Origin: Armatimonadota bacterium
GTDB lineage: Bacteria > Armatimonadota > DTGP01 > JAKQQT01
Assembly: GCA_036504855.1 (NCBI GenBank)
Contig: DASXUL010000031.1
Coordinates: 3,077-67,076 of the forward strand
Length of the DNA stretch: 64,000 nucleotides
Reading direction: 5' to 3'
The notes under the pieces are model-generated. The model did no database searches. It had not been told where the DNA came from and worked only from the letters and a program-made list of their open reading frames with translations. How positions within the stretch are numbered: position 1 is the stretch's first letter; each line of letters begins with the position of its first letter. Of the stretch, positions 2,776-62,058 are shown piece after piece. A program made the translations under genes and the position numbers.

Positions 2776-2904
2776 GCTTACGAGTCATCAGTTATCAGTC
2801 GTCAGTCATCAGCCCGAAGGCTTTGATCAATCAGGCGGCCTTGCCTACGTGCGGCGCCTCCGGCTGACAACTGACGACTGATGACTGACGACTGACAACT
2901 AACC
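2776..2904. repeat. Nested-palindrome intergenic element, copy 1. It fills the entire pheS-pheT spacer.
   Basis: Left arm gagtcatcagttatcagtcgtcagtcatcagcc; right arm ggctgacaactgacgactgatgactgacgactgacaact. Arms are heptamer (TCAGTCA-like) tandems. The inner GC-rich hairpin is cccgaagg...cctccggctg. Confidence 0.75.
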
Positions 2905-4923: not shown

Positions 4924-6674
4924 GATTGCGCGGGAAGGGCGCGGCGCCGGAGCGCGAGGGAAACGGGCAACCGTCCCCTTCCGCTTCCGCCGCGCCCTTC
5001 CCGCGCGCCGTTCTGGCCGCCATCCTCCTTGGCGCCGCCTACCTGCGCTTTTCCGGGCTCGCCTGGGGCCTGCCGAACGCCCACCACTGGTTCTCCTACC
5101 ACCCGGACGAAGCCCTCATCCTGCTGGCCGCCGCCAAGGTGAACGTGTTCGCCGGGCAGCTTGACCCTGGATTCTTCAACTACGGCAGCCTGTACATCTA
5201 CCTGATCAGCGCCGTCACGCACGTTCTGGATGCCTGGGCGCCGCTTTCGCAGCCGTGGCAGGAGCTTGCCCGGATGACGCTCGTCGGGCGCGCGCTCGCC
5301 GCATCCTTCGGCGTCGGCACGGTTTACGCAACGTACCTCATCGCCAACCGCCTGGCGGGACGGCGCGCGGGGTTCATCGCGGCCATCATCATGGCCGTGC
5401 TGCCGATGCACGTTGTCCACTCGCACTTCGCAACCGTGGATGTGCCTGCCACGTTCTGGGTGAGCGCGGCGCTTTACAACGCCCTCCGCTGGCCGGCGGG
5501 ACGGCGCGCGGCGCTGTGGTGCGGCATCTTCGCGGGCCTCGCGGCCGGCACGAAGTACAACGCGGGCCTCGTGTTGCTGGCCAGCTGGGCCGCCGCGGCG
5601 ATGGCGAGGGAGGTTCCGAAATCGGCCCGCTGGCAGGCCGCCGGCCTGATAACCGCCGCCTGCGCCGCGGCGTTCCTCTTGAGCACGCCGGGCGTCGCCA
5701 TCAACACGCCGCAGTTCCTCCACGATTTCGGCTATGAGGCGCAACACGTGCGCACCGGCCACGGCCTGGTGTTCGTGAACACGGGGCCCGGCTGGCTGTA
5801 TCACCTGAGGGTCAACCTCTGGCAGGGGATCGGCCCGTTCCTCCCCATCGCGGCGCTCATCGCCCTGCGCCATATCCGCCGGCCGGTTCGGTTGCACCCC
5901 GCGACCATCACCCTCTTGGCGTTCGGGCTTCCGTACTTCGCGCTGATCGCCGCCGCCGCCGTTCGCTTCCAGCGCTACGATATGCCGCTGCTTCCGCTGC
6001 TGGCGGCCGGCGCCGCCGTGCTGATGGACCGCGAACGCGGGCGCTGGATGCACGTCTCCACCGCGGCGATCATCGCCACGATGGTCCTGGCAACCGGCCT
6101 CAAGAACACGATGGCCGCCCCCGCGGGCGACCTTCAGATGACCGGACAGCCGTACAGAGGCGATCCGAGGGACGCCGTGGCGGAGTGGTTCCGTCAGACA
6201 GTCCCGCCCGGCCGAACGGTGGGTCTCGCCTCCGCCCCCTGGTTCTACACGCCGCCCTTCACCACCGCCAACGCGGGCCCGCAGTCTCGCGGCGCCTTCG
6301 GGCACGAAGCCACGCCGCCGGCTTATCCTCTGCTGTTGCCGGACGCCGAGGGGGAGACGGCCTGGAGCCAATGGCCGGACCTCATTGTGATTTCCGACTA
6401 CGAGTACGGCGACGCCATGCGCCTGCAGGGCGCGCCGGTTGTGGAGCGGGCGGCGCAGATCGACCGCGTGAAGATCGACCCATCCTCGCCCGAGGAGGCG
6501 CAACGCATAGTCCGCCTCTGGAACAACGTTGTGGCCCGATATGAACTGGTAGGCCTGTGGTCGCCTCGAATGCCCGCTATGGGCCTCTCGTGGCCAAAGA
6601 AGGCCCTTCCGCCCCACGACGCCTTCTACCCCTACCCCACCCTCATCGTCTTCCGCCGCTCGGACAAGAAGTGA
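4920..6674 (+). CDS. GT-C fold membrane glycosyltransferase (PMT/ArnT-like, GT39/GT83-type)
   Basis: Multi-pass membrane protein with an N-terminal periplasmic-loop motif FSYHPDEALIL, typical of dolichyl/undecaprenyl-phosphate-sugar-dependent transferases. The ATGA overlap with pheT suggests co-transcription. Confidence 0.55.
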   Translation: MRLRGKGAAPEREGNGQPSPSASAAPFPRAVLAAILLGAAYLRFSGLAWGLPNAHHWFSYHPDEALILLAAAKVNVFAGQLDPGFFNYGSLYIYLISAVTHVLDAWAPLSQPWQELARMTLVGRALAASFGVGTVYATYLIANRLAGRRAGFIAAIIMAVLPMHVVHSHFATVDVPATFWVSAALYNALRWPAGRRAALWCGIFAGLAAGTKYNAGLVLLASWAAAAMAREVPKSARWQAAGLITAACAAAFLLSTPGVAINTPQFLHDFGYEAQHVRTGHGLVFVNTGPGWLYHLRVNLWQGIGPFLPIAALIALRHIRRPVRLHPATITLLAFGLPYFALIAAAAVRFQRYDMPLLPLLAAGAAVLMDRERGRWMHVSTAAIIATMVLATGLKNTMAAPAGDLQMTGQPYRGDPRDAVAEWFRQTVPPGRTVGLASAPWFYTPPFTTANAGPQSRGAFGHEATPPAYPLLLPDAEGETAWSQWPDLIVISDYEYGDAMRLQGAPVVERAAQIDRVKIDPSSPEEAQRIVRLWNNVVARYELVGLWSPRMPAMGLSWPKKALPPHDAFYPYPTLIVFRRSDKK

Positions 6675-9215: not shown

Positions 9216-10052
9216 TCAGGCGTGGAGCTTCGCATACTCATCGCCGAGGTTCGGAATCTCGATACAGGCCAAACCGGCGGACTCGCCGACGGCGCGAAGG
9301 GCGGCGGCGATGGCGCGCAAGTCGAGGCGCGTGGAGTATATCTCCGCATGGTCGCCGTGCGGCCCTCCCGGGATCACGGTTACGATGGCGTCTTGGCAAA
9401 AGCGGAGAACGCCGTCGCGGCGAAAACCCATCCGGTTGATGGCATCCCAGTGGCCCAGCGCCGCATCGTCTCCCTGGATGAATGCACGCTCGATCTCGAC
9501 CAGTTCGCCCTCCATCTCTGTGTCCGGCCGGTCGAAGGCGAAGACGCGCGGGCTCACTGTGTTCGCGAACAGGGGAAGCGTCGTCTGTGGGCCGATATCG
9601 CCGCCGCCTATCCGAAACGCGATGACGTCCACCGAATGGCACGGGACAATGCGGCCGGTTGAGGGCGAGACGGAGCGCGAGTGACGCGTATCCGCCAGGC
9701 GGGCCACGCTGCGACCAAGGGCCTCCTCAACAAGGCCGATGTCCGGCAAGCAAGCCTCGCCCAGATACCACAGGCGCGACTGACGCCCCGCCAATGCCGC
9801 AACGGCCATCGCGACGATCGTGGGATATCCAAAGGGACGCCGCATCCACGCGGCCTGGTCTTCTGGAGCCGGCGGGGAGTCGAACGGCAGGCGCTGATCC
9901 ACGATCACCCGACAGAGCCCATCGTCGGGTGCTTCGTCCGCGGGGAGCATCGATCCATCATCGGCCAGGCGAGCGCGCTCCTCGGTGTAGAGGTAGAGTC
10001 CGGGCTCCTGGTATATCCGTTCGCGTTCCGCGTTGGGGTTCGTCATCTCCAT
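9216..10052 (-). CDS. Hypothetical protein (278 aa), unknown function. Second gene of the operon.
   Basis: Balanced, non-repetitive composition. Tight spacing (7 nt to upstream gene, 45 nt to downstream gene) on the same strand. Confidence 0.45.
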   Translation of the reverse strand: MEMTNPNAERERIYQEPGLYLYTEERARLADDGSMLPADEAPDDGLCRVIVDQRLPFDSPPAPEDQAAWMRRPFGYPTIVAMAVAALAGRQSRLWYLGEACLPDIGLVEEALGRSVARLADTRHSRSVSPSTGRIVPCHSVDVIAFRIGGGDIGPQTTLPLFANTVSPRVFAFDRPDTEMEGELVEIERAFIQGDDAALGHWDAINRMGFRRDGVLRFCQDAIVTVIPGGPHGDHAEIYSTRLDLRAIAAALRAVGESAGLACIEIPNLGDEYAKLHA

Positions 10053-13841: not shown

Positions 13842-13985
13842 GGATAGTCATCAGTTATCAGTCGTCAGTCTTCAGTCCGGCGGCTTCGACCATGAGGCCG
13901 CTTACCGCATGGTCGAGACCTCCGGACTGATGACTGAGGACTGATGACTGATGACTGACGACTGAAGACTGAAGACTGAAGACTC
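13842..13985. repeat. Nested-palindrome intergenic element, copy 2, between two minus-strand genes
   Basis: tcatcagttatcagtcgtcagtcttcagtccggcggcttcgaccatgaggccgcttaccgcatggtcgagacctccggactgatgactgaggactgatgactgatgactgacgactgaagactgaagactgaagac. Confidence 0.75.
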
Positions 13986-15071
13986 CTAGATGACTTCCAA
14001 GCCGTCGCGGTCTGGGAGGGTTGGGAAGGGCGCGTGCGGCTCGGCCTGATACCAGAACGATGTGCTGGAGATGTCGTCCTGCATCGGAAGGTAGCGGCCG
14101 TCCGGGCGCCAGCCGAGCGCCTGGATGGTCACCCTCAGGTCCTGCTGGAAGCGGATGGGGTCCTGAACGTGCCAGCGATAGAGGCCGAACCGTTGCTGGC
14201 TCTGGTAGAGGCCGTCTGGCTTGATGACCTGCGGCAAGCCGAGGTAGGGGGTGCTGAAGACGCCGTACTCGCCTTGCGGGTGCTCGAAATTCCAGGCGCC
14301 GCCGAAGTAGTCTTCGGTGCCCGTGCCGCAGATAGTGGGGAAATCGGTATCGCCATCCAGGTAGAACTTGATCTCGCCCTCGCCCCACCAGCCCGTGTTG
14401 TTCACGCCCCAGGCCAGGTAGGTTCCCACATACTGCCCCCAGCCCTTCACCCCATCCAGAAGGGTGTGAACGGTCTTGTACGGCAGCGGGTTGCTGCGGC
14501 GGAACTGAGCGTGGAAGTATGCTGCGTCGTCGGGAACCTCCGTCAGCGTGTAATCCACCTGGTAGTAGTAGCCGCCACACGGCTCATGCCAGAGGTTCTC
14601 CACCGTGATCCGGGCGCTCTTGCGGAACGGCATCTCCCAGTAGCTGTTGAACCCGCCGGCCGGGTTCACCGCAACGGGCAGGCTGGAAACGTTGCACCGT
14701 TTGCACCAACCGCTGCAGAAGAGATCGCCCAGCGGGACCTCCACGCTGGGGGTCTCCTCGCCGTCCCAGTAGACGCGGATCACGAGGCGCCGCCAGAAAT
14801 CCGGGTGAACCGTGTTCCAGAAATGTTGGATGGCTCCTGGCCCCTCGATGTCGGCGATGGTGACCGTCTCGTTGGGAGGGATTGTGATGCAGGGAGATAC
14901 CTTCCAGCCCTGGCCCAGTTCGCGGGCGCAGCGCGACCCAGAGCCTTCGGTGGCCATGCCGGCCTTGCCCTTCTCGCCGGTGAAGTTCTCCGCGCTGATG
15001 CTGCGCGATTGCGCTCTGGAAAGGCGCGAGACGTTGTGCAGGCCGATGCCCAGCCCGTTGAATCCGTCCAT
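13986..15071 (-). CDS. DUF2961-like protein (family reported as glycoside hydrolase GH172)
   Basis: 361 aa from MDGFNGLG (ATG 15071, RBS aggagc). The upstream 49 codons of the ORF are Arg-rich and likely non-coding. Sits adjacent to the GH5 gene. Confidence 0.5.
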   Translation of the reverse strand: MDGFNGLGIGLHNVSRLSRAQSRSISAENFTGEKGKAGMATEGSGSRCARELGQGWKVSPCITIPPNETVTIADIEGPGAIQHFWNTVHPDFWRRLVIRVYWDGEETPSVEVPLGDLFCSGWCKRCNVSSLPVAVNPAGGFNSYWEMPFRKSARITVENLWHEPCGGYYYQVDYTLTEVPDDAAYFHAQFRRSNPLPYKTVHTLLDGVKGWGQYVGTYLAWGVNNTGWWGEGEIKFYLDGDTDFPTICGTGTEDYFGGAWNFEHPQGEYGVFSTPYLGLPQVIKPDGLYQSQQRFGLYRWHVQDPIRFQQDLRVTIQALGWRPDGRYLPMQDDISSTSFWYQAEPHAPFPTLPDRDGLEVI

Positions 15072-19559: not shown

Positions 19560-22196
19560 ATGCACATCGTTCGTCTCTGTCTTCCGGCGCTGCTGGCGGT
19601 TGCGGGCCACGCGACCGAGCCGGCGGCGCCCCTCGTGAAGGACCTCGTTCAGTTCGCCGGCGGAAAGCCCGTTCCCATCGTGGCTGTGGCCGCATGGGAC
19701 GGGGCTGTTGAGCGCTCCGGGCCTCCGCCTTCAACAGCCGGCAAGGCATGGCTCCCGGCTCTCCAGGCCATCGCCGAAGGAGCCTCGACACCAAGCGATA
19801 CCGCCATCCCCTTCGGTTTCGGCGCCGTGTGGACCATTGCGCCCGACGAGATGACGGTCCCCAGCCTGCCCATCGGCCCGTTCGACCCGCTGACGACCCT
19901 ACGGGCGGACACCCTGTTTCCGATGGTCGCCGCCAGCCTAACGCCGGAACAGATGGAGAAGGCCTCCGCGGGCGGGTTGACCTGGAATGATTGGACGGTG
20001 GACCAGCAGCGCCTGCTCACCGCCGCGTTTAGCCGGCCCGGCCTCTCCGCCTCCACGGTATCGTGGGCGGGCGGGGTACCAACATCGCGCGCCACACCGT
20101 TGCCCGGCGGCGCGCTGCCCATCTGGCGCGCAAGGGTGCGCCTTGGGCTGGCCTTTCGATATCTGCGCATCCCCGCCGCGGACGGTGGATTCGGCTCTGG
20201 GTACTATCTGCACACCGAAGAGCCGCGGCTCCGTTTCCCTTCCGAATCGATGTCTCCCATCGGGTACGACCCCCCGATTACGTCGCACTGCCGACAGACC
20301 GCCAGACTGAAGCCGCAGGGCATCGCCTTCGGCAGCGCGGCGCTGTCGGCCCCGATCGGCGTCTCCGGTTCCCTCACCGTCGCCGAGGTCGTCAAGGCCG
20401 CCGCTGCGGCAACCGGTCTGTCGATAAAGGTCGATCCGCATTTCGCCGGCAAGCCCGCCTTCGTTGGCGACTCCAGGTTGCGCGCCGGCGACGTTATGAA
20501 GGCTCTGGCGTTCGACCTCAGCGCCGCGTGGCGTCGCATTGGCCGTCACCTGTACCTGGCGTGGGACATGCTGGGTTTCGCGGCGTTCGACACGCTGCTG
20601 CGGGAGACCGCCGAACCCGTGCAGGAGGCGTTGCGCACCTTCTCGGCATCGATCGCCAGAAGCGGTTGGGTGGCCGACGCGTTCCAATACGTGGCGCCGC
20701 GGGCCGCGGCGCGAATCGGCCCAACCCCGGAACAAGTTGCCGCGCTCGCACGGGTCCCCCCCATCACGGCGAACGTGATCAACGCGGAGGACGCCAGTAC
20801 GCTTCCCTTCAGCCAGTTGACTTCGGCGCAGCAGGCCGCCATCCGCGCGGTGATGCCGCCGATCGAGCCCGGCGATCTCCAGCGCGCCGTCGTCGGTAAC
20901 CTGACCATCGAGGCCACCGTTCAGGTTCCAGGGCTGCCGCCGATGCTGCTAGGCGAAAACGGGCTCGCGGGGATTGACGCCGTGTTCACCGCGCCCGCGC
21001 CGGCCCAGAATCCCAAGGCCGACTGGCCGCCGAAGAACCTGCCGGGCGAGGGCTCCATCCGGTTGCCGCAGCCGGTGCGAGCGCTGGCGCCGACCCTCCT
21101 CACCCGCGGCGAATGGCCCCGACTGCTGGAGCAGATGCGCCGAAAGGGCCTCAATTGCCTGTACTTCCCCGTGCTGTGGGACGGACACGCAACCTTCCCG
21201 TGCAAAGCCTTCCCGCTGGCTCCAGAGGCGCGCGGCGTGGATCTGCTGGCCGAGGTAGCGACACGGGCGAAGCCGCTTGGCATTCGCGTTGTTGGAGTTG
21301 TCCATACGCTCGCGTGGCGCTTCCCTGGAGGCGGCGAGCTCCACTGGCTGCACCGGCATCCGGAAATGGTGGACGTGGACGCGGCGGGCCGCACGCGGCG
21401 CGAATGGGCCACGCCGGAACGGTTGCGCTCGCCGCTCTACAAAGGCGCCGACTGGGCGGAGGACCCACTCGCGTTTTCCGATATGGCGGACCCGACCCTG
21501 CCGGCGGTGCGCTCACGCCTGCTGGCCTTCTGCGCCGAGCTGCGGGCCCACGGCGGCCTTGACGGCGTGGCGCTGGCCCATTGGACACGCGGCGCGGGCC
21601 AAGATTACCCCGGCTCGCTGATGCCGATGTTGGGTTACACGATACCTGCCCGCGCGGCCTTCCTCGAAAAGCGCGACGAGGATATCGCCGACACGCCGTT
21701 GGAGCCATTCTGGCGAGGGCGAACGTGGTCGCCGTTCGGCCCCGCCGATCAGAGGCTCGTGTTCTCGGACACGGCGAGCCAGTGGCGGGGGCTGCAGTGG
21801 GATGCGGAGATCGATCTGGTGGACGCGCTGGAAGACGAACTGCGCAAGACGTGGATAGCCGGCGTGAGCGTGTTCTACCCCTATGAAGCCGCAGTCCCGG
21901 CGCCGTTGGCGGCCAAGCGATTGGAAGCGGATACGCTCATCGCCTCAACCGCTTCGGGGAAAGGGGAGTACCAATGGCTTCCGGCGCCGAAGCCCGTCGA
22001 TCCCGCGCCCGGCTACATCCAGACCTACCTCGGCGACGAACTGGCGAAGGCCAACGAGAACCGCGCCGCCCGAGCCGCCATCCGCCTTCAGCGCCTCACC
22101 GGCCCCTCCGCCGCCAACCTCGCCGGCGTCGTGCTGGACTTCACCACCGGCCCAGACCTGATGTGGGATGCGTTGAGGTTGGTCGCCGGGCCGTGA
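19560..22196 (+). CDS. Secreted 878-aa protein with a C-terminal GHL10-like (PF02638-type) glycoside-hydrolase-like TIM-barrel domain
   Basis: Signal peptide MHIVRLCLPALLAVAGHA. Segment LYFPVLWDGHATFPCKAFP...GVDLLAEVATRAKPLGIRVVGVVHTLAWRF resembles the conserved GHL10 core. Confidence 0.5.
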   Translation: MHIVRLCLPALLAVAGHATEPAAPLVKDLVQFAGGKPVPIVAVAAWDGAVERSGPPPSTAGKAWLPALQAIAEGASTPSDTAIPFGFGAVWTIAPDEMTVPSLPIGPFDPLTTLRADTLFPMVAASLTPEQMEKASAGGLTWNDWTVDQQRLLTAAFSRPGLSASTVSWAGGVPTSRATPLPGGALPIWRARVRLGLAFRYLRIPAADGGFGSGYYLHTEEPRLRFPSESMSPIGYDPPITSHCRQTARLKPQGIAFGSAALSAPIGVSGSLTVAEVVKAAAAATGLSIKVDPHFAGKPAFVGDSRLRAGDVMKALAFDLSAAWRRIGRHLYLAWDMLGFAAFDTLLRETAEPVQEALRTFSASIARSGWVADAFQYVAPRAAARIGPTPEQVAALARVPPITANVINAEDASTLPFSQLTSAQQAAIRAVMPPIEPGDLQRAVVGNLTIEATVQVPGLPPMLLGENGLAGIDAVFTAPAPAQNPKADWPPKNLPGEGSIRLPQPVRALAPTLLTRGEWPRLLEQMRRKGLNCLYFPVLWDGHATFPCKAFPLAPEARGVDLLAEVATRAKPLGIRVVGVVHTLAWRFPGGGELHWLHRHPEMVDVDAAGRTRREWATPERLRSPLYKGADWAEDPLAFSDMADPTLPAVRSRLLAFCAELRAHGGLDGVALAHWTRGAGQDYPGSLMPMLGYTIPARAAFLEKRDEDIADTPLEPFWRGRTWSPFGPADQRLVFSDTASQWRGLQWDAEIDLVDALEDELRKTWIAGVSVFYPYEAAVPAPLAAKRLEADTLIASTASGKGEYQWLPAPKPVDPAPGYIQTYLGDELAKANENRAARAAIRLQRLTGPSAANLAGVVLDFTTGPDLMWDALRLVAGP

Positions 22197-22320
22197 CGCG
22201 TCAGCTGTCAGCTATCAGCCTTCAGCAATCAACCGGAAGCTCCGCCCAACGAGGACAGTATCCTCGACGGGCGGAGCTTCCGGCTGATGGCTGAAGGCTG
22301 ATAGCAGACAGCTGATATTC
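22197..22320. repeat. Nested-palindrome intergenic element, copy 3 (variant heptamers CAGCTGT / CAGCTAT / CAGCAAT), between convergent genes
   Basis: gtcagctgtcagctatcagccttcagcaatcaaccggaagctccgcccaacgaggacagtatcctcgacgggcggagcttccggctgatggctgaaggctgatagcagacagctgat. Confidence 0.7.
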
Positions 22321-22321: not shown

Positions 22322-23260
22322 TCACGCCATCGTGCGGTCCAGGCGGTTGAGCTGGAACTCCACGGGGGCGGCGGCGGCCAGCAGTTGCGTGGTGGTCTCG
22401 GTCTGGATGATCACGTCGTTGATGTCGGCCAGCACCTGTTCCGGCGGCAGGGTGCGGATCTGGTCGGAGATCAGGCCGAAGGTATTCTCGATGAGGTCAA
22501 GCTGGCACTCCAGGTTGGTGATGATGTTGCCCAGTTCGCCGATCCGCTCGCGCCGCTTCTGAACCACTTCCAGGTTCTTCTGAAGCACGAGGCGGTTGGC
22601 GTCGTTGGCCGCGCCCGCGACGCTGCCCTTAAGCTGCTCGATACGGGAATCCAGCCCTGTTTGAACCTGCTCGATGATGGAGGCCATCTCGGCGGTCTTG
22701 CGGGGCTGGCCGTTCACCGGGATGCGCAGCCCATCCTGTTTCTCGGTGATGAGCACGCTGGCCAGGTCGAAAATGCGGTCCACCCATCCGGCGCCCTGGA
22801 AAACCGGGCCCGGCGTTGGGCGCACCATGTCCACCAGGTATGCGCGGTACTGCGCGGACTTCGCGCCGAACTGGAGGAACTTGTCCAGCAGCACGTCCAT
22901 CTGGCGGCAAACGATGACTGTGTGCTCACGGCCGAAACCGATTGCGGCGGCGTTGGGAAGCTGGTTGCGCATGGTTTCCAGGCGCTGGAAGCGGCCGCGA
23001 TCCTGCGGCAGCAAGCCGGGCAGGATTTCGCGCTTCATCTTGGCGCGCTCCAACTGCCGGGTGCGCAGAGCGCGCCCCTCCAGCACGTTGCGGTACCAGC
23101 CGCTGTCAGGCACGAAGAGCATGTAGCCGAGTTCCATGGCGGCGGCAACGAAGAGCACCGCCGGATCCTCCGTGGCCATCGCCACAAAGAAGGCGAACAC
23201 CACGAACAGGAGGTTCAGGGGCTCCGCAAACGCCGACTTCACGGTTTGTGGCACTCTCAT
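22322..23260 (-). CDS. Hypothetical membrane-anchored coiled-coil protein
   Basis: N-terminal hydrophobic pair (LNLLFVVFAFFVAMA, VLFVAAAMELGYMLFV), then a long helical, charged region. Confidence 0.4.
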   Translation of the reverse strand: MRVPQTVKSAFAEPLNLLFVVFAFFVAMATEDPAVLFVAAAMELGYMLFVPDSGWYRNVLEGRALRTRQLERAKMKREILPGLLPQDRGRFQRLETMRNQLPNAAAIGFGREHTVIVCRQMDVLLDKFLQFGAKSAQYRAYLVDMVRPTPGPVFQGAGWVDRIFDLASVLITEKQDGLRIPVNGQPRKTAEMASIIEQVQTGLDSRIEQLKGSVAGAANDANRLVLQKNLEVVQKRRERIGELGNIITNLECQLDLIENTFGLISDQIRTLPPEQVLADINDVIIQTETTTQLLAAAAPVEFQLNRLDRTMA

Positions 23261-28942: not shown

Positions 28943-29184
28943 CACATTCACCTCGTAAAGACATGGGGCATGGCGGCAAAACGGGCCACGCGATCGGCTT
29001 CGACAGAGCGGGCAATGGGTACGGGCACAGTGTAGGACGCGAGCGTTCCGCCGAACCAACCGAACCGCCCCCCCGCCCCCCAATCCTGGGGGACCCAAAA
29101 GTGAACGCGCGGTTCTGACGCGACGCTTACGCCGAGCGAATGGCTTGGGTCCCCCAGGATTGGTGGGCAGGGGGGCAGAGAAGC

Positions 29185-33672: not shown

Positions 33673-33728
33673 CGCCCGGGCGTTACGCCGTGCGGAGGCT
33701 CTTCGGCGCGATGTGTAGCCTTCCTTCC

Positions 33729-33876
33729 CACGTCACCCTGAGGAACGAAGGGTCTCGGCCTTGCGCTGCGTCGTGGGAGACGTCTCAGGCACCCGATACC
33801 ACCTTGGCATGGGTGCTTGAGACGTTTTTTGTTGCGGGCGGCCAGGCCGAGACCCTTCGTTCCTCAGGGTGACGTG
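33729..33876. repeat. 32-bp perfect inverted repeat flanking an inner terminator-like hairpin
   Basis: cacgtcaccctgaggaacgaagggtctcggcc (33729-33760) is perfectly reverse-complementary to 33845-33876. Inner stem gagacgtctcaggcaccc...gggtgcttgagacg is followed by ttttttgtt. Confidence 0.65.
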
Positions 33877-34308
33877 GAAGGGAGGCGACTCGCATCGCGA
33901 ACGGAAGCCCCGCGCGCGGACGGGTCAGGACGGCCAGCGTCCCTTGGCGCGGCGCGGGGCGGACACGGCAGGCCGTGTCCCTTCGCTTACCTGGTTCCCT
34001 CCGCCGAACGGTGGACGGCCGGGCCCACCGGGTCCGGGCGGCTCCGGCGCGGCCCTTCAGGGCCATCATGGCCGATGGCCCGTAGACGGGGGGGTCCAAC
34101 CCCCGGCCCACCTCCCGCCCAGCCTCTCCCCGCTGACGGCTGATAGCTGACGGCTTCTTATATGACGCGCTTATGAACTCTCTGTGAATTCTCGCGGCCG
34201 CTGAGCGTGGAGGCGCTTCGGGGACGCTTAAGAGGGCGGTTTTGGGGCCGAAGACCCAGATGGTTGCGCACCCAATAACCGAAACGAATAGGCACGGAGG
34301 CCACAACA

Positions 34309-35310: not shown

Positions 35311-35448
35311 GAGTCGTCAGTCATCAGTTTTCAGTCATCAGTGATCAGTCGTCAGTCATCAGCCCGAAGGCTCATATGAGCAGCGCACTTTCCTGATGGA
35401 GCAAACCCTCGGGCTGATGACTGACGACTGACAACTGACGACTGATCA
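35311..35448. repeat. Nested-palindrome intergenic element, copy 4, upstream of queG
   Basis: gagtcgtcagtcatcagttttcagtcatcagtgatcagtcgtcagtcatcagcccgaagg...ccctcgggctgatgactgacgactgacaactgacgactgatca. Confidence 0.75.
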
Positions 35449-39477: not shown

Positions 39478-39495
39478 GATCCAAGCGCAGAGCGT

Positions 39496-39533
39496 GATAT
39501 GGGGCGCCGCGGCCTGCCGCGGCGCCCCATATC
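39496..39533. terminator. Perfect 17-bp-stem palindrome. Likely a bidirectional terminator between convergent genes.
   Basis: gatatggggcgccgcgg-cctg-ccgcggcgccccatatc. Confidence 0.55.
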
Positions 39534-39572
39534 AGACTCAGAGTCCAGCCTCATTCAGCGTGCAGCGCCCGT

Positions 39573-43757: not shown

Positions 43758-43760
43758 TAC

Positions 43761-43807
43761 GCAAATGGAATGTCCGGCGGCCCTGGCCGCCGGACATTCC
43801 ATTTGCG
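43761..43807. terminator. Perfect 22-bp-stem palindrome between convergent glcE and the beta-helix gene
   Basis: gcaaatggaatgtccggcggcc-ctg-ggccgccggacattccatttgc. Confidence 0.55.
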
Positions 43808-43814: not shown

Positions 43815-46121
43815 CTACCGGCTCATCGCCTTCAGCGCGCGGGCCAGAGCGATGGCGTCCTGGATCGTGAGGCCGTTCGCGCCCGACATCTGATAGGCAT
43901 CCGCCTGCGCGGCGCTTGCGGGGGCGAGCCCGCCCGCGATGCGCAGGATGGCGGCCACATCACTCCACTTGCGCTCCGTCCCCGTTGCTGCGCTCTCATA
44001 GCACCCGGCGTCCACATGGAGGCCCTGGATGCGGGGCAGACCGTCCAGGTCCAACTCACCGGGCAGCACGGCGCTGTCATCCCCGAAGTCCACGCACGGC
44101 GACATGGGAAGCAAATGGTAGTCTTCGTTGAGCAAGTCTGCGAACATGGGATACGCCAGGATATTGCCGCCGCCCGCCAGGATAGGCGGCAGCGTGCCCT
44201 GCTCGACGGACGATGGGTAGATGCAGTTGCCCCGTGCCGTGACGTACGGTGAGGCGAGCACCGGCGTAATTGCGAAATCGCAGAAGGCCAGGATGTTGTT
44301 CATTATGCTCATGCGGCCCTGGATCATGAGGCGCAGCGCGGCTCCTGGACTGTTCACCACGGTGTTGTTCACCACATCCACCTCGGAGCGTTCGAGGCTC
44401 ATCGCAGCGAAGGGCGAGCCAGGAGTCACCGCCGCGTTCGCATCGAGGAGGTTGTTGGCGATTCTGCCGGCCGGGCAGTAATAGGCGCGGATCGCGGAGA
44501 GTGATGACCCGGATGAGACGCGGGTACCTGTCACCAGATTGCCGACGATGGTGGGCGTTGATGCTTGCGCTTCGACCGCCGTTGGAACCTTAGCGGTTCC
44601 CCCCACGACGGCGTTGTTCTCGAAAACGGCGGCGGAGCCAATCATCGATACGGCGCCGTTGATGTTGAGGAAGACGTTGTTGCGGATGTACGGCGATCCC
44701 CCCGAGCAGTTCACGCCTAGCATGGACGCATACTGAGTTGTGGAACCGTAGAAGATGAACCCATCGATGGAGCTCACGCGAAGGCCCGCAACGCTGCCGG
44801 CCGCGGCCCTTGATCCGGCGAGAAACGTGGGGTTGGCGGCCAGATTCCGTTGGTCGCGCGTTGATTCCGTACCGGCGAAACCGCCATAGAGGTAGACGTA
44901 TGGCCGCACGAGTATGGAGACCGCCAGCGGCGCAGCGCTCTGGGTCAGCGCGTAGGAGCCTGCCGCCACCCACACCTCGCCGCCGCCCGACGCCGCCGCC
45001 GCGTCAACCGCTGACTGAACGCTGTTCGTGGCCGTCGCCCAGGTGAGCCCGTCGTTCGTCCTCGCGCCTTTCGGCGAAACGTGGAAAACCCGCCTCGGCG
45101 TCGGCAGCCACTGGCGTCCGTCGGACTCGTCTGCCCCGATATCCACGTGCGCGCCCTGAAGCCGGGGCTGGAGGTCTACGTCTGTGTCTCCGGCTGCCGC
45201 CAGCGCGTCGTCGCCCGCATCACGGCAAGGGGAATCCGGCTGGATGTGGAGGTTCCCCGCGCCGTAGTCTGCCAGTGCTGGGTCGGAGTCGATATCATCC
45301 GGCCCCGGCTTGCTTCCAGCGGACACGTAGTCGCCGCCGATGTTGCCGTGGACGCAGTTATGGCGGCGGACGATTCGCGCCGCGTCCTCGGATATGCCGC
45401 TGACGTTGAAGGCGATGATGTTGTTGGCCAGGAGAGAGGTAGGCGCGTTCGTTACAGCCACCGCGCCGGCGGCGCCCGCATTGCCCACGATAGTGTTGTT
45501 GACGATGTACACGGCAGCATTGGACGCGTAGATCGCCGAACCAGACTGCGACGAGTTGGCCGTAATGATGTTCCCGGCGATCGTGGCGGCCGCTCCGCTC
45601 TGGCAGCAGATGCCTCCTCCTGTTCCCTTCATCGGTTCCGCATAGTTGGAGGTGACGATGTTGTGCGTCAGGATCAGTTTCCCGGTCTGCAGGCTCACGC
45701 CACCTCCATAGCCGGCCGACAGGCCGTTGCGGATGGTGAACCCATCTACCACGGCTGGCGGGCTGTTTACGGCGCCGGACCGCACGGTGACGCAGGGTGT
45801 TCTGTAGGCGCCGTCGATGACCGTGAGCGAAGGGATGCCCAGGCGCTGATCGCGGTAGGTTTCGGTGCCCACGAACCCGCCGTACAGAGCGACGGGCTTG
45901 TCGATGAGAAGATTGCCGGCATAGGTCCCGGCGGCTACCCAGATCTCGTCGCCGGCCGCTGCCGCCTGGATCGCCGCGGGAATCGCCGGGAAGGCGGTGG
46001 ACCACGACTTTCCGTCCGCCGTTGTGAGGGTGATGCCGCGATCTACGTAAATGACCCGCGCGGACGCCCCGCCCGCCAGCATGAAGAGGATGCTGAGGGC
46101 GCAGAAGGATGGATTACGCAT
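43815..46121 (-). CDS. Secreted protein with two tandem right-handed parallel beta-helix (pectate-lyase-like) domains and a C-terminal dockerin-like tail
   Basis: Signal peptide MRNPSFCALSILFMLAGGASA (ATG 46121). Recurrent NNTIVGN / NNIIAFN / NNVFLN coils. Duplicated N-capping modules AAAAGDEIWVAAGTYAG and AAASGGGEVWVAAGSYA. Tail WSDVAAILRIAGGL...ANGLTIQDAIALARALKAM. Confidence 0.65.
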   Translation of the reverse strand: MRNPSFCALSILFMLAGGASARVIYVDRGITLTTADGKSWSTAFPAIPAAIQAAAAGDEIWVAAGTYAGNLLIDKPVALYGGFVGTETYRDQRLGIPSLTVIDGAYRTPCVTVRSGAVNSPPAVVDGFTIRNGLSAGYGGGVSLQTGKLILTHNIVTSNYAEPMKGTGGGICCQSGAAATIAGNIITANSSQSGSAIYASNAAVYIVNNTIVGNAGAAGAVAVTNAPTSLLANNIIAFNVSGISEDAARIVRRHNCVHGNIGGDYVSAGSKPGPDDIDSDPALADYGAGNLHIQPDSPCRDAGDDALAAAGDTDVDLQPRLQGAHVDIGADESDGRQWLPTPRRVFHVSPKGARTNDGLTWATATNSVQSAVDAAAASGGGEVWVAAGSYALTQSAAPLAVSILVRPYVYLYGGFAGTESTRDQRNLAANPTFLAGSRAAAGSVAGLRVSSIDGFIFYGSTTQYASMLGVNCSGGSPYIRNNVFLNINGAVSMIGSAAVFENNAVVGGTAKVPTAVEAQASTPTIVGNLVTGTRVSSGSSLSAIRAYYCPAGRIANNLLDANAAVTPGSPFAAMSLERSEVDVVNNTVVNSPGAALRLMIQGRMSIMNNILAFCDFAITPVLASPYVTARGNCIYPSSVEQGTLPPILAGGGNILAYPMFADLLNEDYHLLPMSPCVDFGDDSAVLPGELDLDGLPRIQGLHVDAGCYESAATGTERKWSDVAAILRIAGGLAPASAAQADAYQMSGANGLTIQDAIALARALKAMSR

Positions 46122-46234
46122 GGAATGCTCCTGGCTTCGGCACGCCGTTGCGCCCAGTGGCGTGTCCGCCTGATTCTGACCGGCGGACTGACCGGATTGT
46201 TCCACGTTGACCCTCATGCCCGCCGCCGCGTACC

Positions 46235-47536
46235 ATGAGGTCAGGAAACACCATGCCAGAGACATCCATTTCGCTTCAAGAACCCCGATCCTTCTACGAC
46301 GGACTGCTGGACTGCGTCCACTGCGGCTTCTGCCTGGACGTCTGCCCCACCTACGTTGAGACCGGCAATGAAGCGGACTCGCCGCGCGGGCGCATCTACA
46401 TCATGCGCGCCCTCGAGGAAGGCCAGATCGACCTGGACGCCGGCGCCGTGGAACACCTGTCCCGCTGCGTGGGCTGCCGCGCCTGCGAGCCGGCCTGCCC
46501 CAGCGGGGTGGCGTACGGCAGTCTCATCGAGCTTCAACGCCAGCGCATCCAGAAAGGCCGGAAGGAGCCGCCGGCGCGAGACCGCGCCAAGCGCCTGCTG
46601 CTGTGGACCCTCACGGATGCCCGTCGCGCCGCCCTCGCCATGGCCCCCGCGGCCTGGCTGGGACGCATCACCGGCGCCGGCCGGAACGTGATGCCGGCCT
46701 TCCTCGGACGGCTCATGGGGGGGCACGGCGCCATGCACCTGCACCATCCCGTATCGCCGATCAGCCGCCGTCTTCCCGCCCGCACGCCGGCGGAGGGCCC
46801 GCAACGCGCCCGCGTGGCCGTTCTGAAGGGCTGCGTGATGAACGTGCTCTACCACGAGGTGAACCGCGCCACGATCCGCGTGCTGGCGGCGAACGGTTGC
46901 GAGGTGATCGTCCCGCGCGGCCAGAAATGCTGCGGAGCCCTGCACGCCCACAATGGATTCGTGGACGAGGCGAAGGAGATGGCGAAACACACGATTGCCG
47001 TGTTCGAGCGCGAGAACTTGGACGCCGTGGTCATCAACAGCGCCGGATGCGGGTCCACGATGAAGGACTACGGCCACATGCTGGAAGACGACCCGCAGTG
47101 GCGTCAGCGCGCCGCCGCCTTCTCGGCCAAGGTGAAAGACGTTTCGGAGTACCTGGATGCCCTCGGCCTCGTCCAAACGCTGAACCCCATCAACGAAACC
47201 GTGGTCTACCACGATGCCTGCCACCTTGGGCACGCGCAGGGCGTGCGAACGCCGCCGCGCCGGCTTCTGGAGCAGATACCGGGCCTCACGCTGGTCCCGC
47301 TGGAGGAGGGCGAACTCTGCTGCGGCAGCGCCGGAATCTACAACTTCCTGGAGCCCGATATGGCCGGACGTTTGCAGGACCGCAAGGTGGAGAACATCCT
47401 GGCCTCCGGCGCCTCGGCCGTGGTCACCGGCAACCCCGGCTGCCTCTCCTGGATCAACGACGGCCTCAAGAAACGCGGCCTCTCGATGGACGTATTGCAT
47501 CCCGTGGAACTGCTGGACCGCGCGAGGGGAGAATGA
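46235..47536 (+). CDS. glcF: Glycolate oxidase iron-sulfur subunit
   Basis: Two 4Fe-4S ferredoxin motifs (CVHCGFCLDVCPTY, CVGCRACEPACPSG) plus C-terminal CCG domains (CCGALH..., CCGSAG). Confidence 0.8.
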   Translation: MRSGNTMPETSISLQEPRSFYDGLLDCVHCGFCLDVCPTYVETGNEADSPRGRIYIMRALEEGQIDLDAGAVEHLSRCVGCRACEPACPSGVAYGSLIELQRQRIQKGRKEPPARDRAKRLLLWTLTDARRAALAMAPAAWLGRITGAGRNVMPAFLGRLMGGHGAMHLHHPVSPISRRLPARTPAEGPQRARVAVLKGCVMNVLYHEVNRATIRVLAANGCEVIVPRGQKCCGALHAHNGFVDEAKEMAKHTIAVFERENLDAVVINSAGCGSTMKDYGHMLEDDPQWRQRAAAFSAKVKDVSEYLDALGLVQTLNPINETVVYHDACHLGHAQGVRTPPRRLLEQIPGLTLVPLEEGELCCGSAGIYNFLEPDMAGRLQDRKVENILASGASAVVTGNPGCLSWINDGLKKRGLSMDVLHPVELLDRARGE

Positions 47537-47922
47537 TGAGAGCGTACGCCGAGGCGTTGCGCCGCTTGCGCTGGAAATCCCATTCGCGCGACTGGTGGAT
47601 GAAGCGCCTCGGCAAGGGCCTCCAGTACGCCGCATGGCTAGCGATGTGGGCCGTTTTCTGCGCCGCGTGGTTCGTTCACCCGTGGTGGATGAAGCTCTTG
47701 ATGATTCCCTTGGGGGTCCTGACCCGGTACATCGTGCCCTACGTGATCCTGGGCGCGTTAGTCGTCGCCGCCGTCGCGGGGCGCGTTGTCGTTGTCATCG
47801 TCGGGAGCGTCGTCTTCGTGGTACTGGGCATCCCATATCTCCTGTTCATCTACGTCCCCTTGCACGCCGAAGAGACTTACCGCCGGGACGGGTACCCGCC
47901 GAAGATCCGACCTTACCCCTAG
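47533..47922 (+). CDS. Hypothetical small membrane protein (129 aa)
   Basis: Overlaps the glcF stop (ATGATGA). Trp-rich hydrophobic helices (AAWLAMWAVFCAAWFV, VVVVIVGSVVFVVLGIPYLLFIY). Confidence 0.35.
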   Translation: MMRAYAEALRRLRWKSHSRDWWMKRLGKGLQYAAWLAMWAVFCAAWFVHPWWMKLLMIPLGVLTRYIVPYVILGALVVAAVAGRVVVVIVGSVVFVVLGIPYLLFIYVPLHAEETYRRDGYPPKIRPYP

Positions 47923-47925
47923 CCT

Positions 47926-49605
47926 ATGTTGTCTGAGATCCATATCCGCAATTTCGCGCTGATTGAGCGGCTGGACTTGCTCCTGGCGCCAGGGCTCAAC
48001 ATCGTCACGGGCGAAACGGGCGCCGGGAAGTCCATCTTCATCGACGCCATCAACGCCGTGTTGGGCGAGCGCACGGGCTCTGATGTGATCCGCAGCGGCG
48101 CGGAGCGGGCCAGCGTTGAGGGAGCCTTCAGCACGAACGATGCGCCCTCCGTAACAGCCCGCCTCGTTGAAGAAGGTCTGGATGATGAGGAGGACCTCCT
48201 CGTCCTCACCCGCGAGCTGGTGCGCGGCGGCCAGGGCGCGGCCCGCGTGAACGGCCGCCGCACGACGGTTGGCGTGCTGAGGTCCGTTGGCGATGGCCTC
48301 GTGGATGTGCACGGTCAGCACGAGCATCAGAGCCTGCTCTCCGTGGAGCGCCACGTGGACATACTGGACTCCTGGGGCGGCGCCGAGATCTGCGCTTTGC
48401 GCGAGCGCACGGCCGCGCTGCACGCCCAGTGGCGGGCCGCCCTCGCCGAGATGACCGCCCTCCAGATGGATGAGCGCGAGCGCGCCCGCCGCGTTGACCT
48501 CTACTCCTTCCAGGCCGATGAGATTGAATCGGCCTCCCCCCAGCCCGGAGAGGACGAAGCCCTGATGGCGGATCGCATCCGCATCGGCGGCGCGGAGAAA
48601 CTCGCCGCCGCCGCGGGCGAGGCGCATGACCTTCTCAACGGAGAGGGCGGCACGGCCGTGGAGGCCTTGGGCACGGCCATGAGCCGCCTGCGCGACGCTG
48701 TGCGCCTGGATGCCGCCCTCCAGCCGATGCTGGATTCCGTGGAAAACGCCTACTACACCGCCCAGGAAGCCGCGCGGGACCTTTCCGCCTACGTGGAGGG
48801 TGTAGAGTTCAGCCCGGAACGCCTGCAGGAAGTCGAGGACCGCCTGGACATCCTGCGCCGCCTCAAGCGGAAGTACGGCGATTCGCTGGAAGAGGTCATT
48901 GCCTATCGCGACCGAATTTCCGCGGAGCTTGAAGCGCTCCAGGGAGCGGACGCCCGCATCGAAGAGCTAACCGCCGAGATCGAGCGCATCCGCGGCGAGC
49001 TGGACATTGTGAACGGACAACTCCGGGCCCAACGACGCGAGGCGGGAGAGTCTCTGCGGCGCGCCATGGAACTGGAACTGGGGGACCTGGCGATGGAGAA
49101 AACGCGCGTGGAGGTTTCGCTTACCCCCATCGACCCCACCGCCAAGGGCGCCGACCACGTGGAGTTCCTCATGTCTCCCAACCCCGGCGAGCCGCTGAAG
49201 CCGCTGGCGCGCATCGCCTCCGGCGGCGAGCTGAGCCGCCTCATGCTGGCGCTGAAGTCCGTGGTCGCCAAAGCGGATCCGGTGCCGGTTCTCGTTTTCG
49301 ACGAGATCGACACGGGCGTCTCCGGCCGCCAGGCCGGCGTCATTGCCGCCAAGATGCGCGGCCTGGCCGCCTCCAGCCAGGTGCTGTGCGTCACCCACTC
49401 GCCCCAGATCGCTGCCGCGGCCGACCAGCACTACGTCATCCGCAAGACGGTGGAAGGCGGCCGCACGCTGACCCACGTCACCCCGCTGGACGAAGCCGCC
49501 CGCGTGGAAGAGGTGGCCCGCATGCTGGCCGGAGCCTCGCCGACCGAGAGCGCCAGGGCGCACGCGCGCGCCCTGATCGCCGAGTTCCACGCCGCCCAAC
49601 CATAA
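47926..49605 (+). CDS. recN: DNA repair protein RecN
   Basis: Walker A GETGAGKS, a long coiled coil, and the ABC signature region near the C-terminus. 559 aa. Confidence 0.9.
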   Translation: MLSEIHIRNFALIERLDLLLAPGLNIVTGETGAGKSIFIDAINAVLGERTGSDVIRSGAERASVEGAFSTNDAPSVTARLVEEGLDDEEDLLVLTRELVRGGQGAARVNGRRTTVGVLRSVGDGLVDVHGQHEHQSLLSVERHVDILDSWGGAEICALRERTAALHAQWRAALAEMTALQMDERERARRVDLYSFQADEIESASPQPGEDEALMADRIRIGGAEKLAAAAGEAHDLLNGEGGTAVEALGTAMSRLRDAVRLDAALQPMLDSVENAYYTAQEAARDLSAYVEGVEFSPERLQEVEDRLDILRRLKRKYGDSLEEVIAYRDRISAELEALQGADARIEELTAEIERIRGELDIVNGQLRAQRREAGESLRRAMELELGDLAMEKTRVEVSLTPIDPTAKGADHVEFLMSPNPGEPLKPLARIASGGELSRLMLALKSVVAKADPVPVLVFDEIDTGVSGRQAGVIAAKMRGLAASSQVLCVTHSPQIAAAADQHYVIRKTVEGGRTLTHVTPLDEAARVEEVARMLAGASPTESARAHARALIAEFHAAQP

Positions 49606-49667
49606 AGACACAATGGCGCCGCGGTTTGGGATCTCTCGCGGGCCGCGTCTCGCGATAGACTACACTG

Positions 49668-50810
49668 ATGGTTCAACCACATACGATATCGGGGCCCGCC
49701 CGCGTGGGACGCCGCACCAAGGAGTTGGTTCGCCGCATCCAGCCGGGCGACGTAGCCGTGATATTCCATCGCGACCTCGACGCCATGGCGGCCAGCCAAC
49801 TGGTGGAGCGCAGGCCGTGCGCGGTGGTCAACGCGGAGGCATCCACAAGCGGTCGCTACGTCAACGGCGGTCCGCGCGTGCTTCTGGAGGGCGGCATCCC
49901 GCTCTTCGACGCCACCGATGCCGAGTGGGCGGACGACATCCGGGATGGGGAGACGATCCGCGTTGCCGGCGCCGGCGTCTACCGAGGCGAGATCCGCCTC
50001 ACCCGCGTGCGCGAGGTCACCGAAGCCACCCTGCAGGCCCAGCGAGCCGCCGCGCGCGACAACCTGGAAACCGAGATCGCCGCCTTCGCCGAGAACACGC
50101 TGCGTTACCTCGCGGACGATAAGGCGCTGCTGTTGAACCCCACGGACGTGCCCGCGACGGCTGTTAAGATCGACGGACGGCCGGCCCTCATCGTGGTGCG
50201 CGGCGAGGGCTACCGGGCGGACTTGGAGATGGTGAGGCCTTACGTAAAGGAGCAGCAGCCGGTGCTGATTGGCGTGGACGGCGGCGCCGATGCCCTGCTG
50301 GAGTGCGGATTCACCCCGGATATCCTTCTGGGCGACATGGACAGCGCATCGGACGACGCCATCCGGAAGGCCGGACAGGTGATCGTGCACGCATACGTAG
50401 ACGGGCGGGCGCCCGGGCTGCAGCGCGTGCAGGCGCTGGGGCGGGACGTCACCACCTTCGCGGTACCCGGCACCAGCGAGGATGCCGCCATGTTGCTGGC
50501 CTATGAGCGCGGGGCATCATTGATCGTGGCCGTTGGCACGCATTTCTCGCTGGAGGAGTTCCTGGACAAAGGGCGGGCCGGCATGGCCAGCACGTTTCTG
50601 GTGCGCCTGCGCGTAGGAGCGCGCCTCGTGGATGCCAAAGGGGTGTCGCGCCTCTACGGCGGCGGCATCCGGCCGCGCTACTTGCTGGCGCTCCTGGCGG
50701 CATCCGCCCTGCCTATCGCCATCGTTTTGCTGTTGTCGTCGCCGCTCAGCGACGCCGTGCGCCTGCTGGCGGTAAAGCTGCAGTTCTGGCTCTGGCGATT
50801 GAGACACTGA
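49668..50810 (+). CDS. steA: Putative cytokinetic ring protein SteA
   Basis: 380 aa with a thiamin-pyrophosphokinase-like core and a C-terminal TM (LLALLAASALPIAIVLLL). recN-steA-mctB order as in Actinobacteria. Confidence 0.65.
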   Translation: MVQPHTISGPARVGRRTKELVRRIQPGDVAVIFHRDLDAMAASQLVERRPCAVVNAEASTSGRYVNGGPRVLLEGGIPLFDATDAEWADDIRDGETIRVAGAGVYRGEIRLTRVREVTEATLQAQRAAARDNLETEIAAFAENTLRYLADDKALLLNPTDVPATAVKIDGRPALIVVRGEGYRADLEMVRPYVKEQQPVLIGVDGGADALLECGFTPDILLGDMDSASDDAIRKAGQVIVHAYVDGRAPGLQRVQALGRDVTTFAVPGTSEDAAMLLAYERGASLIVAVGTHFSLEEFLDKGRAGMASTFLVRLRVGARLVDAKGVSRLYGGGIRPRYLLALLAASALPIAIVLLLSSPLSDAVRLLAVKLQFWLWRLRH

Positions 50811-50912
50811 GGGAGTCATCAGTTGTCAGTGATCAGTCGTCAGTTCGGAGCCATTGGAGACGGCTCTACTCGGCGACTGACTACTGATGACTGACGACTG
50901 ACAACTCATACC
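50811..50912. repeat. Nested-palindrome intergenic element, copy 5. It fills the steA-mctB spacer.
   Basis: ggagtcatcagttgtcagtgatcagtcgtcagttcggagccattggagacggctctactcggcgactgactactgatgactgacgactgacaactc. Confidence 0.75.
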
Positions 50913-51797: not shown

Positions 51798-51916
51798 GTC
51801 AGCAATCAGCAATCAGCATTCAGCCCGAAGGCCTCTGTCCATGAGACACCGCATCTCATGGACAGAGGCCTTCGGGCTGAATGCTGAATGCTGAATGCTG
51901 AATGCTGATTGCTGAC
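51798..51916. repeat. Nested-palindrome intergenic element, copy 6 (CAGCAAT / CAGCATT heptamer variant), with a perfect inner hairpin
   Basis: ggtcagcaatcagcaatcagcattcagcccgaaggcctctgtccatgagacaccgcatctcatggacagaggccttcgggctgaatgctgaatgctgaatgctgattgctgacc. Confidence 0.78.
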
Positions 51917-56956: not shown

Positions 56957-57292
56957 TGGGCAGGTCCTTTCGTTCGTTGGGTGCAGACTCCGCCGCAGGA
57001 AGCGGCCATTCTGCCATGATAGCTATGCCATGCCGCTCCAAAGAAACAGATGATTATGAAGAATCGGGCAAGCGGGTTGCGGCGCTTGATGTCCGGCTCG
57101 GTCGAACCGCTGAGGCCGCGGGATCAGCCGAGCAAAGGGATGATGCAAGCAGCTCAAGGCCGGTGTCGCCTTCACATGCAGAGGTTCGTCATCCGGCATT
57201 CCATTGCGGCATGCGGCATTGGGACACGGCTTCCCGTGTCCGCCCCGTAACGCCGATGGGCCGGGCGTTCCACACTGACTCAGCAGAATCGC

Positions 57293-59433: not shown

Positions 59434-59559
59434 CGGCCGCCCTCCCGCGTTCGCCGCGGAATGCGGCGCCTGAAACTTGCCGCCGGCCTGCTGCCAGCGC
59501 GCTACCATGGAGGTGTATACCCAAGTGGCGGGCGATCACACCGTCCGGAGAAAGACGCC

Positions 59560-61120: not shown

Positions 61121-61177
61121 ACGCAACGCCCCAGCGAGTGAAGCCGCCGGGCTCAGTTGGCCCCACGGCCGGGCGTT

Positions 61178-62038: not shown

Positions 62039-62058
62039 ATTGGCCTCCTTGCATCCGG

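Follow-up and report, generated by a model that had tools for sequence, protein, structure and literature searches.

The window, meaning here the whole 64,000-nt stretch of Armatimonadota DNA under analysis (contig DASXUL010000031.1, positions 3,077 to 67,076), contains seven palindromic elements, e1 to e7, in the spacers between ordinary chromosomal genes (pheS/pheT, DUF2961, queG-like, SteA-like, MctB-like, S8 peptidase and aldo/keto reductase genes). An initial annotation, made from the letters alone, had claimed at least seven copies of a family of nested palindromes with heptamer arms, dense and intergenic; on direct reading all seven are in place and the description is borne out. Since the window sequence is 100% identical in the JGI and Logan assemblies, the elements are not an assembly artefact. 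Identity to the closest PheS in the genome collection is 76%, and to the next MctB homologue 58%.

Elements e1, e2, e4 and e5 lie between co-directional genes. In the case of e1 (2776–2904) these are pheS, with its stop codon (TAG) at 2773–2775, and pheT, with its ATG at 2905; the left arm runs from about 2783 to 2812 (TCAGTTA, TCAGTCG and TCAGTCA units) and the right arm from 2864 to 2900. Element e2 (13842–13985; left arm 13846–13877, right arm 13925–13984) reaches from the stop of a minus-strand DUF2961 gene (13986–13988) towards the next minus-strand gene, whose ATG, as corrected, is at 13826, leaving 15 nt to the element. The co-directional context of e4 (35311–35448) is likewise a correction. 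This element is 27 nt upstream of a queG-like gene (ATG 35476) and the upstream gene ends at 34902, some 400 nt away, so that the proposal that each copy fills its whole spacer does not hold for e4. Element e5 (50811–50912) takes up the space from the stop of the SteA-like gene (TGA, 50808–50810) to the ATG of the MctB-like gene (50913).

Convergent genes flank e3 and e6. The former (22197–22320) is of a TCAGCNN type, lies between stops at 22194–22196 and 22322–22324, and has arms of 55 nt that are 91% complementary. The latter (51798–51916) is of a TCAGCAW type with 48-nt arms, 96% complementary, between stops at 51795–51797 and 51917–51919, and its palindrome CTAGGTCAGC...GCTGACCTAG takes in both of these stop codons. 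Element e7 (62059–62172) separates divergent genes, an aldo/keto reductase gene on the minus strand and a Peptidase_MA_2-like gene (ATG 62189); the gene to its left most likely starts at 62036, behind an AAGGAGG. Synteny breaks exactly at e6: the window has S8 peptidase (1679 aa) and ABC1 kinase genes inserted at 51917–59590, and in the relatives L699 and L701 mctB is followed directly by MFS_3, without them.

A further (NNNCTGA)3 array on the plus strand (34131–34157) has no partner arm. It had been listed as a solo arm of the family; it is no broken copy and belongs to a composite of about 450 nt, non-coding and 3' of an AbiJ-like gene, whose other part is a non-heptamer inverted repeat at 33722–33883 with 43-nt arms that are 93% complementary. 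A collinear homologue of this composite (L697, 1–310) is found about 3 kb upstream of the window and ends in eight NNNCTGA units before infC, and the composite is a second repeat family in the genome. Two other convergent spacers are filled by perfect or nearly perfect hairpins of 23–24 bp with no T tail (43760–43807 and 39490–39539), and gene ends in this genome seem as a rule to carry long hairpins without a tail. Another inverted repeat (29067–29176; 32-nt arms, 94% complementary) sits in the 688-nt gap 5' of a class II (B12-dependent) ribonucleotide reductase gene, where Rfam finds no cobalamin riboswitch.

Inverted arrays of heptamers

Each of the seven loci pairs two tandem heptanucleotide arrays in inverted orientation, a palindromic form of the TAACTGA/TCAGTTA class. 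Read directly, e1 to e7 share the form 5'-(TCAGYNN)3-8 – unique GC-rich core – (NNRCTGA)3-9-3', and with Tandem Repeats Finder both arms of all seven are period-7 arrays of 2.9–8.6 units. Left and right arms have 4.3 and 5.3 units in e1, 4.6 and 8.6 in e2, 2.9 and 3.0 in e3, 7.3 and 4.6 in e4, 4.4 and 4.7 in e5, 3.7 and 5.7 in e6, and 4.7 and 6.1 in e7.

The arrays stand out from the rest of the sequence without any model of the element. TCAG repeated at least three times with 7-nt spacing occurs seven times in the window, each time as a left arm, and CTGA so repeated occurs eight times, as the seven right arms and the solo array; shuffled sequences give 0 of either. The four-unit pattern has 24 matches against 0.00 expected; chance similarity, an alternative that the initial annotation had itself named, predicts none. 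In an unbiased periodicity scan of the window, period 7 accounts for 13 arrays, each one an arm of these elements, as against 0, 2, 0 and 1 arrays at periods 5, 6, 8 and 9. Exact-pattern and periodicity scans alone recover all seven copies.

When the seven copies are aligned, four TCAG and four CTGA blocks are invariant and nothing else is. Most units deviate from TAACTGA/TCAGTTA at positions 5–7 while the core CTGA does not vary, and the exact TCAGTTA unit is found in e1 and e2. Compensatory changes affect 23 of the 45 consensus pairs, and position 5 of the unit (T or C) always co-varies with its partner base. One heptamer family is common to all seven loci, and the cores between the arms are only weakly similar and mostly unrelated (4 of 21 pairwise comparisons above 99% of shuffles). 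An inner module of the form agcccgaagg...ccttcgggct, described as frequent, is complete in e6 and in no other copy, GCCCGAAGG being present in e1, e4 and e6; the central CCATGAG that had been noted with it is confined to e2, e6 and e7.

Folding, translation signals and known repeat families

Folded as RNA, either strand of e1 to e7 forms 38–54 base pairs with a dG of −51 to −106 kcal/mol and z of −6.5 to −18, and as DNA the ranges are −27 to −62 for dG and −5.6 to −18 for z. The stable structure on both strands that had been expected is therefore found. Selection on one RNA strand is not apparent, the sense fold being better in 39 elements and worse in 40 (p = 0.88), and the window copies have no sense/antisense trend either. 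Unlike intrinsic terminators, the window copies have stems but no U tract: direct reading finds no T run after either arm in e1 to e7, and a terminator scan calls none at e5 to e7. Altogether, the 3' third of the window (44500–64000) has few T-tailed terminators, 4 against 9.9 in shuffles. Rfam gives no match to the elements at the gathering threshold and below it just microRNA-precursor look-alikes, at e7 and e4.

At e1, e2, e4, e5 and the right side of e7 the CTGA strand faces a nearby start codon that has no Shine-Dalgarno sequence, which is not significant against a background of 16 in 42 genes. A split Shine-Dalgarno sequence bridged by the hairpin was considered for pheT and rejected, the effective spacing of about 26 nt being too long. 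Stop codons in all three frames, considered as the point of the heptamer, hold for TCAG, whose 3' arm supplies TGA, and for GTAG, with TAG in its 5' arm, but fail for TCGGTGT, TCGGGTG and AAAACAG.

Bacterial tandem repeats with 7-nt units have been on record since 1990 and are, among long microsatellites, the most over-represented, and we know of no established function or mechanism for them; STRR heptamers were reportedly described in cyanobacteria by Mazel in 1990. The closest counterpart to the window arms is a set of TAACTGA repeats in Beggiatoaceae, Thiomargarita, cyanobacteria and Bacteroidetes (MacGregor 2015, PMC4679880), and the view that no named family matches has to be given up, TCAGTTA being the reverse complement of TAACTGA and inverted heptamer pairs being on record in Xanthomonas (PMC4692102). 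The TAACTGA arrays are mostly found just 5' of start codons without a Shine-Dalgarno sequence, are direct in all but one of 170 sets, differ between Cyanothece strains by indels in 7-nt increments, and have S1, Csp or CsrA as proposed binders (PMC4679880). With them the window arms share head-to-tail 7-nt units, a mixing of related units within an array, an almost wholly intergenic placement, a patchy distribution across lineages and a CTGA strand that points to a nearby start without a Shine-Dalgarno sequence. Unlike those direct arrays, all seven window copies are inverted pairs around a unique GC-rich core, their host is an uncultured Armatimonadota bacterium of 66% GC, and the variable triplet is far more diverse.

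In Xanthomonas, 186 arrays of GGGAATC (equivalent to TCGGGAA) have been described with 70 convergent inverted pairs (70–75 pairs per genome), with 83% of positions conserved between species and lengths that vary, and were read as G-quadruplex formers (Rehm 2015, PMC4692102). The likeness extends to two heptamer arrays in convergent inversion within one intergenic spacer and to a polarity with the G-rich arm first. A position kept while the length varies is seen for related elements of the Armatimonadota relatives L140, L185 and L154 treated below. With a single G per unit, TCAGYNN, unlike the G-rich Xanthomonas units, is unable to form a quadruplex, so the property that the two have in common is the hairpin.

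Mrazek (2007), as cited in PMC4679880 and PMC4692102, described long simple sequence repeats with units of 5–11 nt in which heptamers are over-represented, and put forward polymerase slippage; in Nostoc, heptamer repeats affect the expression of recF and recO and a binding partner has been proposed (Pradhan 2022). The window arms agree with the long simple repeats and the STRR heptamers in the over-represented unit length of 7, intergenic placement and a presumed change by slippage. They differ in inverted pairing, polarity and arm co-evolution, which those descriptions, so far as the citing papers relay them, do not include. A full-text search of the literature for the literal arm sequences found only primers, and no plasmid was matched by e4 in a BLAST search, which may be due to low-complexity masking.

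A likeness to REP/BIME, Correia and MIRU elements had also been suggested, and at the level of families it falls away once their defining features are looked for. Like REP/BIME/REPIN sequences the window elements are abundant, lineage-specific intergenic palindromes that form hairpins between or after genes, and at the RNA level they probably work like REP/BIME, by analogy. GTAG is the REP signature, and the window copies have neither a GTAG head nor a fixed consensus of 20–40 nt, their arms being microsatellites; no RAYT (Y1 transposase) gene is present in the 64-kb window, and no transposase or IS turned up there in Pfam scans of some 40 ORFs. Transcripts of Correia (CREE) and ERIC elements form hairpins that RNase III cleaves. 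Like these, the window copies are intergenic inverted-repeat elements of about 100–150 nt; unlike Correia elements they have no conserved terminal repeat of about 26 nt and no TA duplication, and their ends are fuzzy (GAG/TAG units). They also differ from a classical MITE in having no target-site duplication and no related IS in the window, and from MIRU, which are direct repeats of 40–100 bp, in their 7-nt units and inverted arrangement.

Relatives, metagenomes and phages

TCAG arrays are nearly absent from 68 pheS-region loci of other Armatimonadota (about 0.9 Mb). Several of these loci keep the architecture with different heptamers and most have no element. The pheS|pheT spacer measures 1–30 nt in about 30 of 46 lineages, usually with a GGAGG, and is occupied by a heptamer hairpin in six lineages, the window included, with six different heptamers: (GGTAGAT)n in L140, (AAAACAG)n in L154, (GCAGTMG)n in L157, approximately (TCRGGTA)n in L159, (GTAGTCA)n in L185 and (TCAGTNN)n in the window. 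Relatives thus use wholly different heptamers at the same loci, and the elements are for that reason better defined by architecture than by sequence. The nearest relatives of the window are too distant for a comparison of the positions of its own copies, and the closest, L122, has no e1, its pheS and pheT being separated by 1 nt (TGA-C-ATG). At the place of e2, L122 (11590–11728) has a short TCRGGTG array together with two GTAG-headed, REP-like palindromes (GTAGGGGCACAGCATGCTGTGCCCCTAC).

L140 and L185 make a closer pair: their DNA identity is 82%, and both carry elements in three consecutive spacers, 5' of rpmI, in rplT|pheS and in pheS|pheT. One orthologous element keeps its position and its heptamer (TCGGTGT) and has 2.5 units in the one and 4.5 in the other. 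In the remaining two spacers GTAG stays as the core, and each unit, in the left arm and the right arm alike, has a new variable triplet (in pheS|pheT, GTAGATG against GTAGTCA); where GTAGGGA faces GTAGACG there are 12 compensatory pairs and 0 broken ones. Within L185 the heptamer is a different one at each locus. In the more distant L154 elements are kept with unrelated heptamers, and its AAAACAG element in pheS|pheT shares the loop start AAATGCCTG. That orthologues keep their position and alter both unit number and triplets in both arms argues that these related elements persist in place, change length in 7-nt steps and have arms that evolve together.

Two further arrangements were met in relatives. 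In L699, from the same metagenome, the orthologous steA|mctB spacer (9944–9996) is a direct array of seven CGGAACT/CGAAACC units with no inverted partner and no Shine-Dalgarno sequence. In L701 (6587–7077) an insertion between recN and the gene for NAD kinase consists of a 135-aa ORF of PF05635 (the '23S rRNA intervening sequence protein') bracketed by arms of (GGGTGYT)n and (ARCACCC)n; at this site L699 (6985–7025) has a 41-nt spacer only, and the L701 unit resembles a hairpin element that carries a gene.

Arrays of five TCAGNNN units are common in IMG/VR contigs (at least 120 matches, with many variable triplets and a GC of 0.33–0.70), and several of the contigs listed are true phage or prophage, with terminase, portal, major head and tape-measure genes and with the elements between structural genes. 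A metagenome scan with TCAGNNNTCAGNNNTCAGCCCGAAGG returned 26 further contigs, unrelated to the window organism and mostly with TCAGCNN hairpins; the idea that these were more copies from the window organism was given up, GCCCGAAGGC being merely the apex of TCAGCNN hairpins. In L209 (reverse strand) a (TCAGCNN)n hairpin with a GCCCGAAGGG apex stands between the rpsN (S14) stop and the rpsH (S8) ATG of the spc operon.

Among the matches listed, neighbouring TCAG and CTGA arrays come in the order TCAG...CTGA 48 times and in the reverse order once, and the same polarity is seen for GTAG (13 against 0) and TCGG (9 against 0), so that 70 of the 71 pairs carry the core in their 5' arm. Since both arm orders give an identical duplex, pairing energy cannot explain the polarity. 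The 5' arm has more G than C in 72 elements and less in 32 (p = 1e-4). The inverted-pair layout is also specific to period 7: in equal samples of 120 loci for each of periods 6, 7 and 8, drawn from the viral collection with at least 120 matches per period, inverted pairs with the same core number 49 at period 7 but no more than 5 and 1 at periods 8 and 6. Among the matches listed, several pairs of period 8 occur together in L496 and L563 alone (TCAGCTAG/TCAGTCGG units), the octamer inverted arrays being at 5484–5559, 5933–5993 and 7732–7794 in L496 and at 1650–1712 in L563.

A census of 102 elements, in a sample chosen by pattern from contigs with a GC of at least 0.55 and with crude gene calls, places 79 between co-directional, 9 between convergent and 4 between divergent genes; a further 9 are at contig ends, and a single one lies within an ORF. 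Most have the preceding stop codon only a few nt from their start. The ORF calling biases the start-codon side and not the stop-codon side. Solo TCAG arrays present NNNCUGA on the mRNA in 43 cases against 19, the orientation bias reported by MacGregor (2015), and solo TCGG arrays have no bias (15 against 15).

Origin and function

The explanation that seems best to us, believed and doubted in about equal measure, is that these are self-maintaining microsatellite palindromes that would act as RNA hairpins between cistrons and would not be conventional transposons. In such a model the arms gain and lose 7-nt units through slipped-strand mispairing, as the unequal arms within one element and the differences in unit number between orthologues suggest; the length variation that the initial annotation had envisaged finds its indirect support in these same two observations. 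A new unit variant would enter both arms, and compensatory replacement is shown between orthologues. Template switching within a palindrome is a known route of quasipalindrome correction, and the complementarity of the arms may be due to such switching, to selection for pairing, or to both. Elements survive in non-coding spacers only, a restriction that is shown, and grow there until they abut the stop before and the start after them.

At the RNA level the transcript of either strand is predicted to fold into a hairpin of 40–50 bp without a U tail. That long duplexes are cut by RNase III and hold up 3' exonucleases is well known from the hairpins of REP and Correia elements and from those between the cistrons of T7. 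By the same token the window hairpins would most likely be a double-stranded target for RNase III-type processing and a barrier at the 3' end, and the fates of the neighbouring cistrons would thereby be uncoupled. A 3' arm of CUGA repeats would furnish the leader of the next gene without a Shine-Dalgarno sequence, as has been proposed for the TAACTGA repeats. Elements are tolerated in phage modules and in essential operons, a window copy lying inside pheST and similar elements elsewhere in rpmI-rplT-pheST and in rpsN|rpsH, from which it follows that they are not efficient terminators.

Where the window copies came from is less easily accommodated by slippage. A single heptamer family at seven loci, with weakly similar cores, is easier to reconcile with dispersal from a master copy than with seven separate origins, and the 1-nt spacer of L122 at the site of e1 leaves nothing there to expand from. 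Slippage also leaves the fixed polarity (70 against 1) and the choice of 7 nt unexplained. An element mobilised in trans and a protein that reads the core both remain serious rivals.

The first of these, which we think unlikely, makes the elements non-autonomous and mobile, of a MITE/REPIN type, and has them moved by an unlinked HUH/RAYT-like single-strand transposase that would recognise the hairpin together with a conserved tetranucleotide, TCAG here and GTAG or TCGG elsewhere. It would account for the shared heptamer family of the window, for a fixed polarity, which is expected under descent, for the presence of e1 and its absence from L122, exactly between stop and start, and for blooms that are patchy and lineage-specific, most of the 68 relatives having no elements. 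The conserved core of L140 and L185 is GTAG, the signature of REP, and the heptamer arms around the PF05635 ORF of L701, absent from L699, point the same way. Against mobility, e1 to e7 have fuzzy ends without target-site duplication, the 64 kb hold no transposase, the cores are mostly unrelated, the L185 heptamer differs from locus to locus, and orthologous elements stay put while their heptamer changes.

The second rival is less probable still, and supposes that the arrays are sites for a nucleic-acid-binding protein which reads a short core every 7 nt and, by way of the 5' arm, controls the hairpin as an antitermination, processing or translation switch. A conserved 4-nt core with a free 3-nt spacer, placed always in the arm that is transcribed first, would suit such a protein, and the bias of solo arrays to NNNCUGA on the mRNA is in keeping with it. 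The Bacillus HutP site is (UAG-N4)3, which CAG or TAG every 7 nt equals. Binding partners have moreover been proposed by both MacGregor (2015) and Pradhan (2022). On the other side, orthologous loci switch to heptamers without NAG (for example TCGGGTG and TCGGTGT), no candidate gene is seen in the window, and solo TCGG arrays are unbiased. An extension of this reading, that heptamer-armed hairpins are widespread polar control modules of bacteria and phages read every 7 nt by a HutP-like protein, is a long shot; if true, a protein that seizes the 5' arm would decide whether the 40–50 bp hairpin forms and so set processing, read-through or re-initiation, and polarity and period 7 would be its footprint. 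That the elements are bidirectional, factor-independent transcription terminators is the least probable of all, for very stable GC-containing stems right after stop codons, the convergent positions of e3 and e6 and the scarcity of canonical T-tailed terminators speak for it but the U tract is absent, e7 lies between divergent genes, and terminators would be harmful inside pheST, steA-mctB, rpmI-rplT-pheS and rpsN-rpsH and between phage head genes.

Heptamer repeats as such were already known, and it is their palindromic TCAG form in Armatimonadota that has not been reported before, along with the co-evolution of arms, the period specificity and a strict polarity across cores, hosts and phages. 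Many different heptamers take this layout, both at orthologous loci and in the structural modules of phages. The co-evolution of arms, the polarity and the stop/start placement are features by which a by-product of mutation, an element that moves and an RNA switch read by a protein can be told apart. Should the hairpins be RNase III or coupling devices, they would matter for operon expression and for the annotation of spacers in many uncultured lineages.

Genes are at times enclosed by heptamer pairs at long range. Such pairs were considered as gene-carrying units, and most of the genes inside them are ordinary genes between neighbouring hairpins. The phage contig L107 has, at 1169–2338, two nested heptamer pairs, GGGAGTA/TACTCCC and ATTCGCT/AGCGAAT, which bracket head-tail connector and head completion genes.
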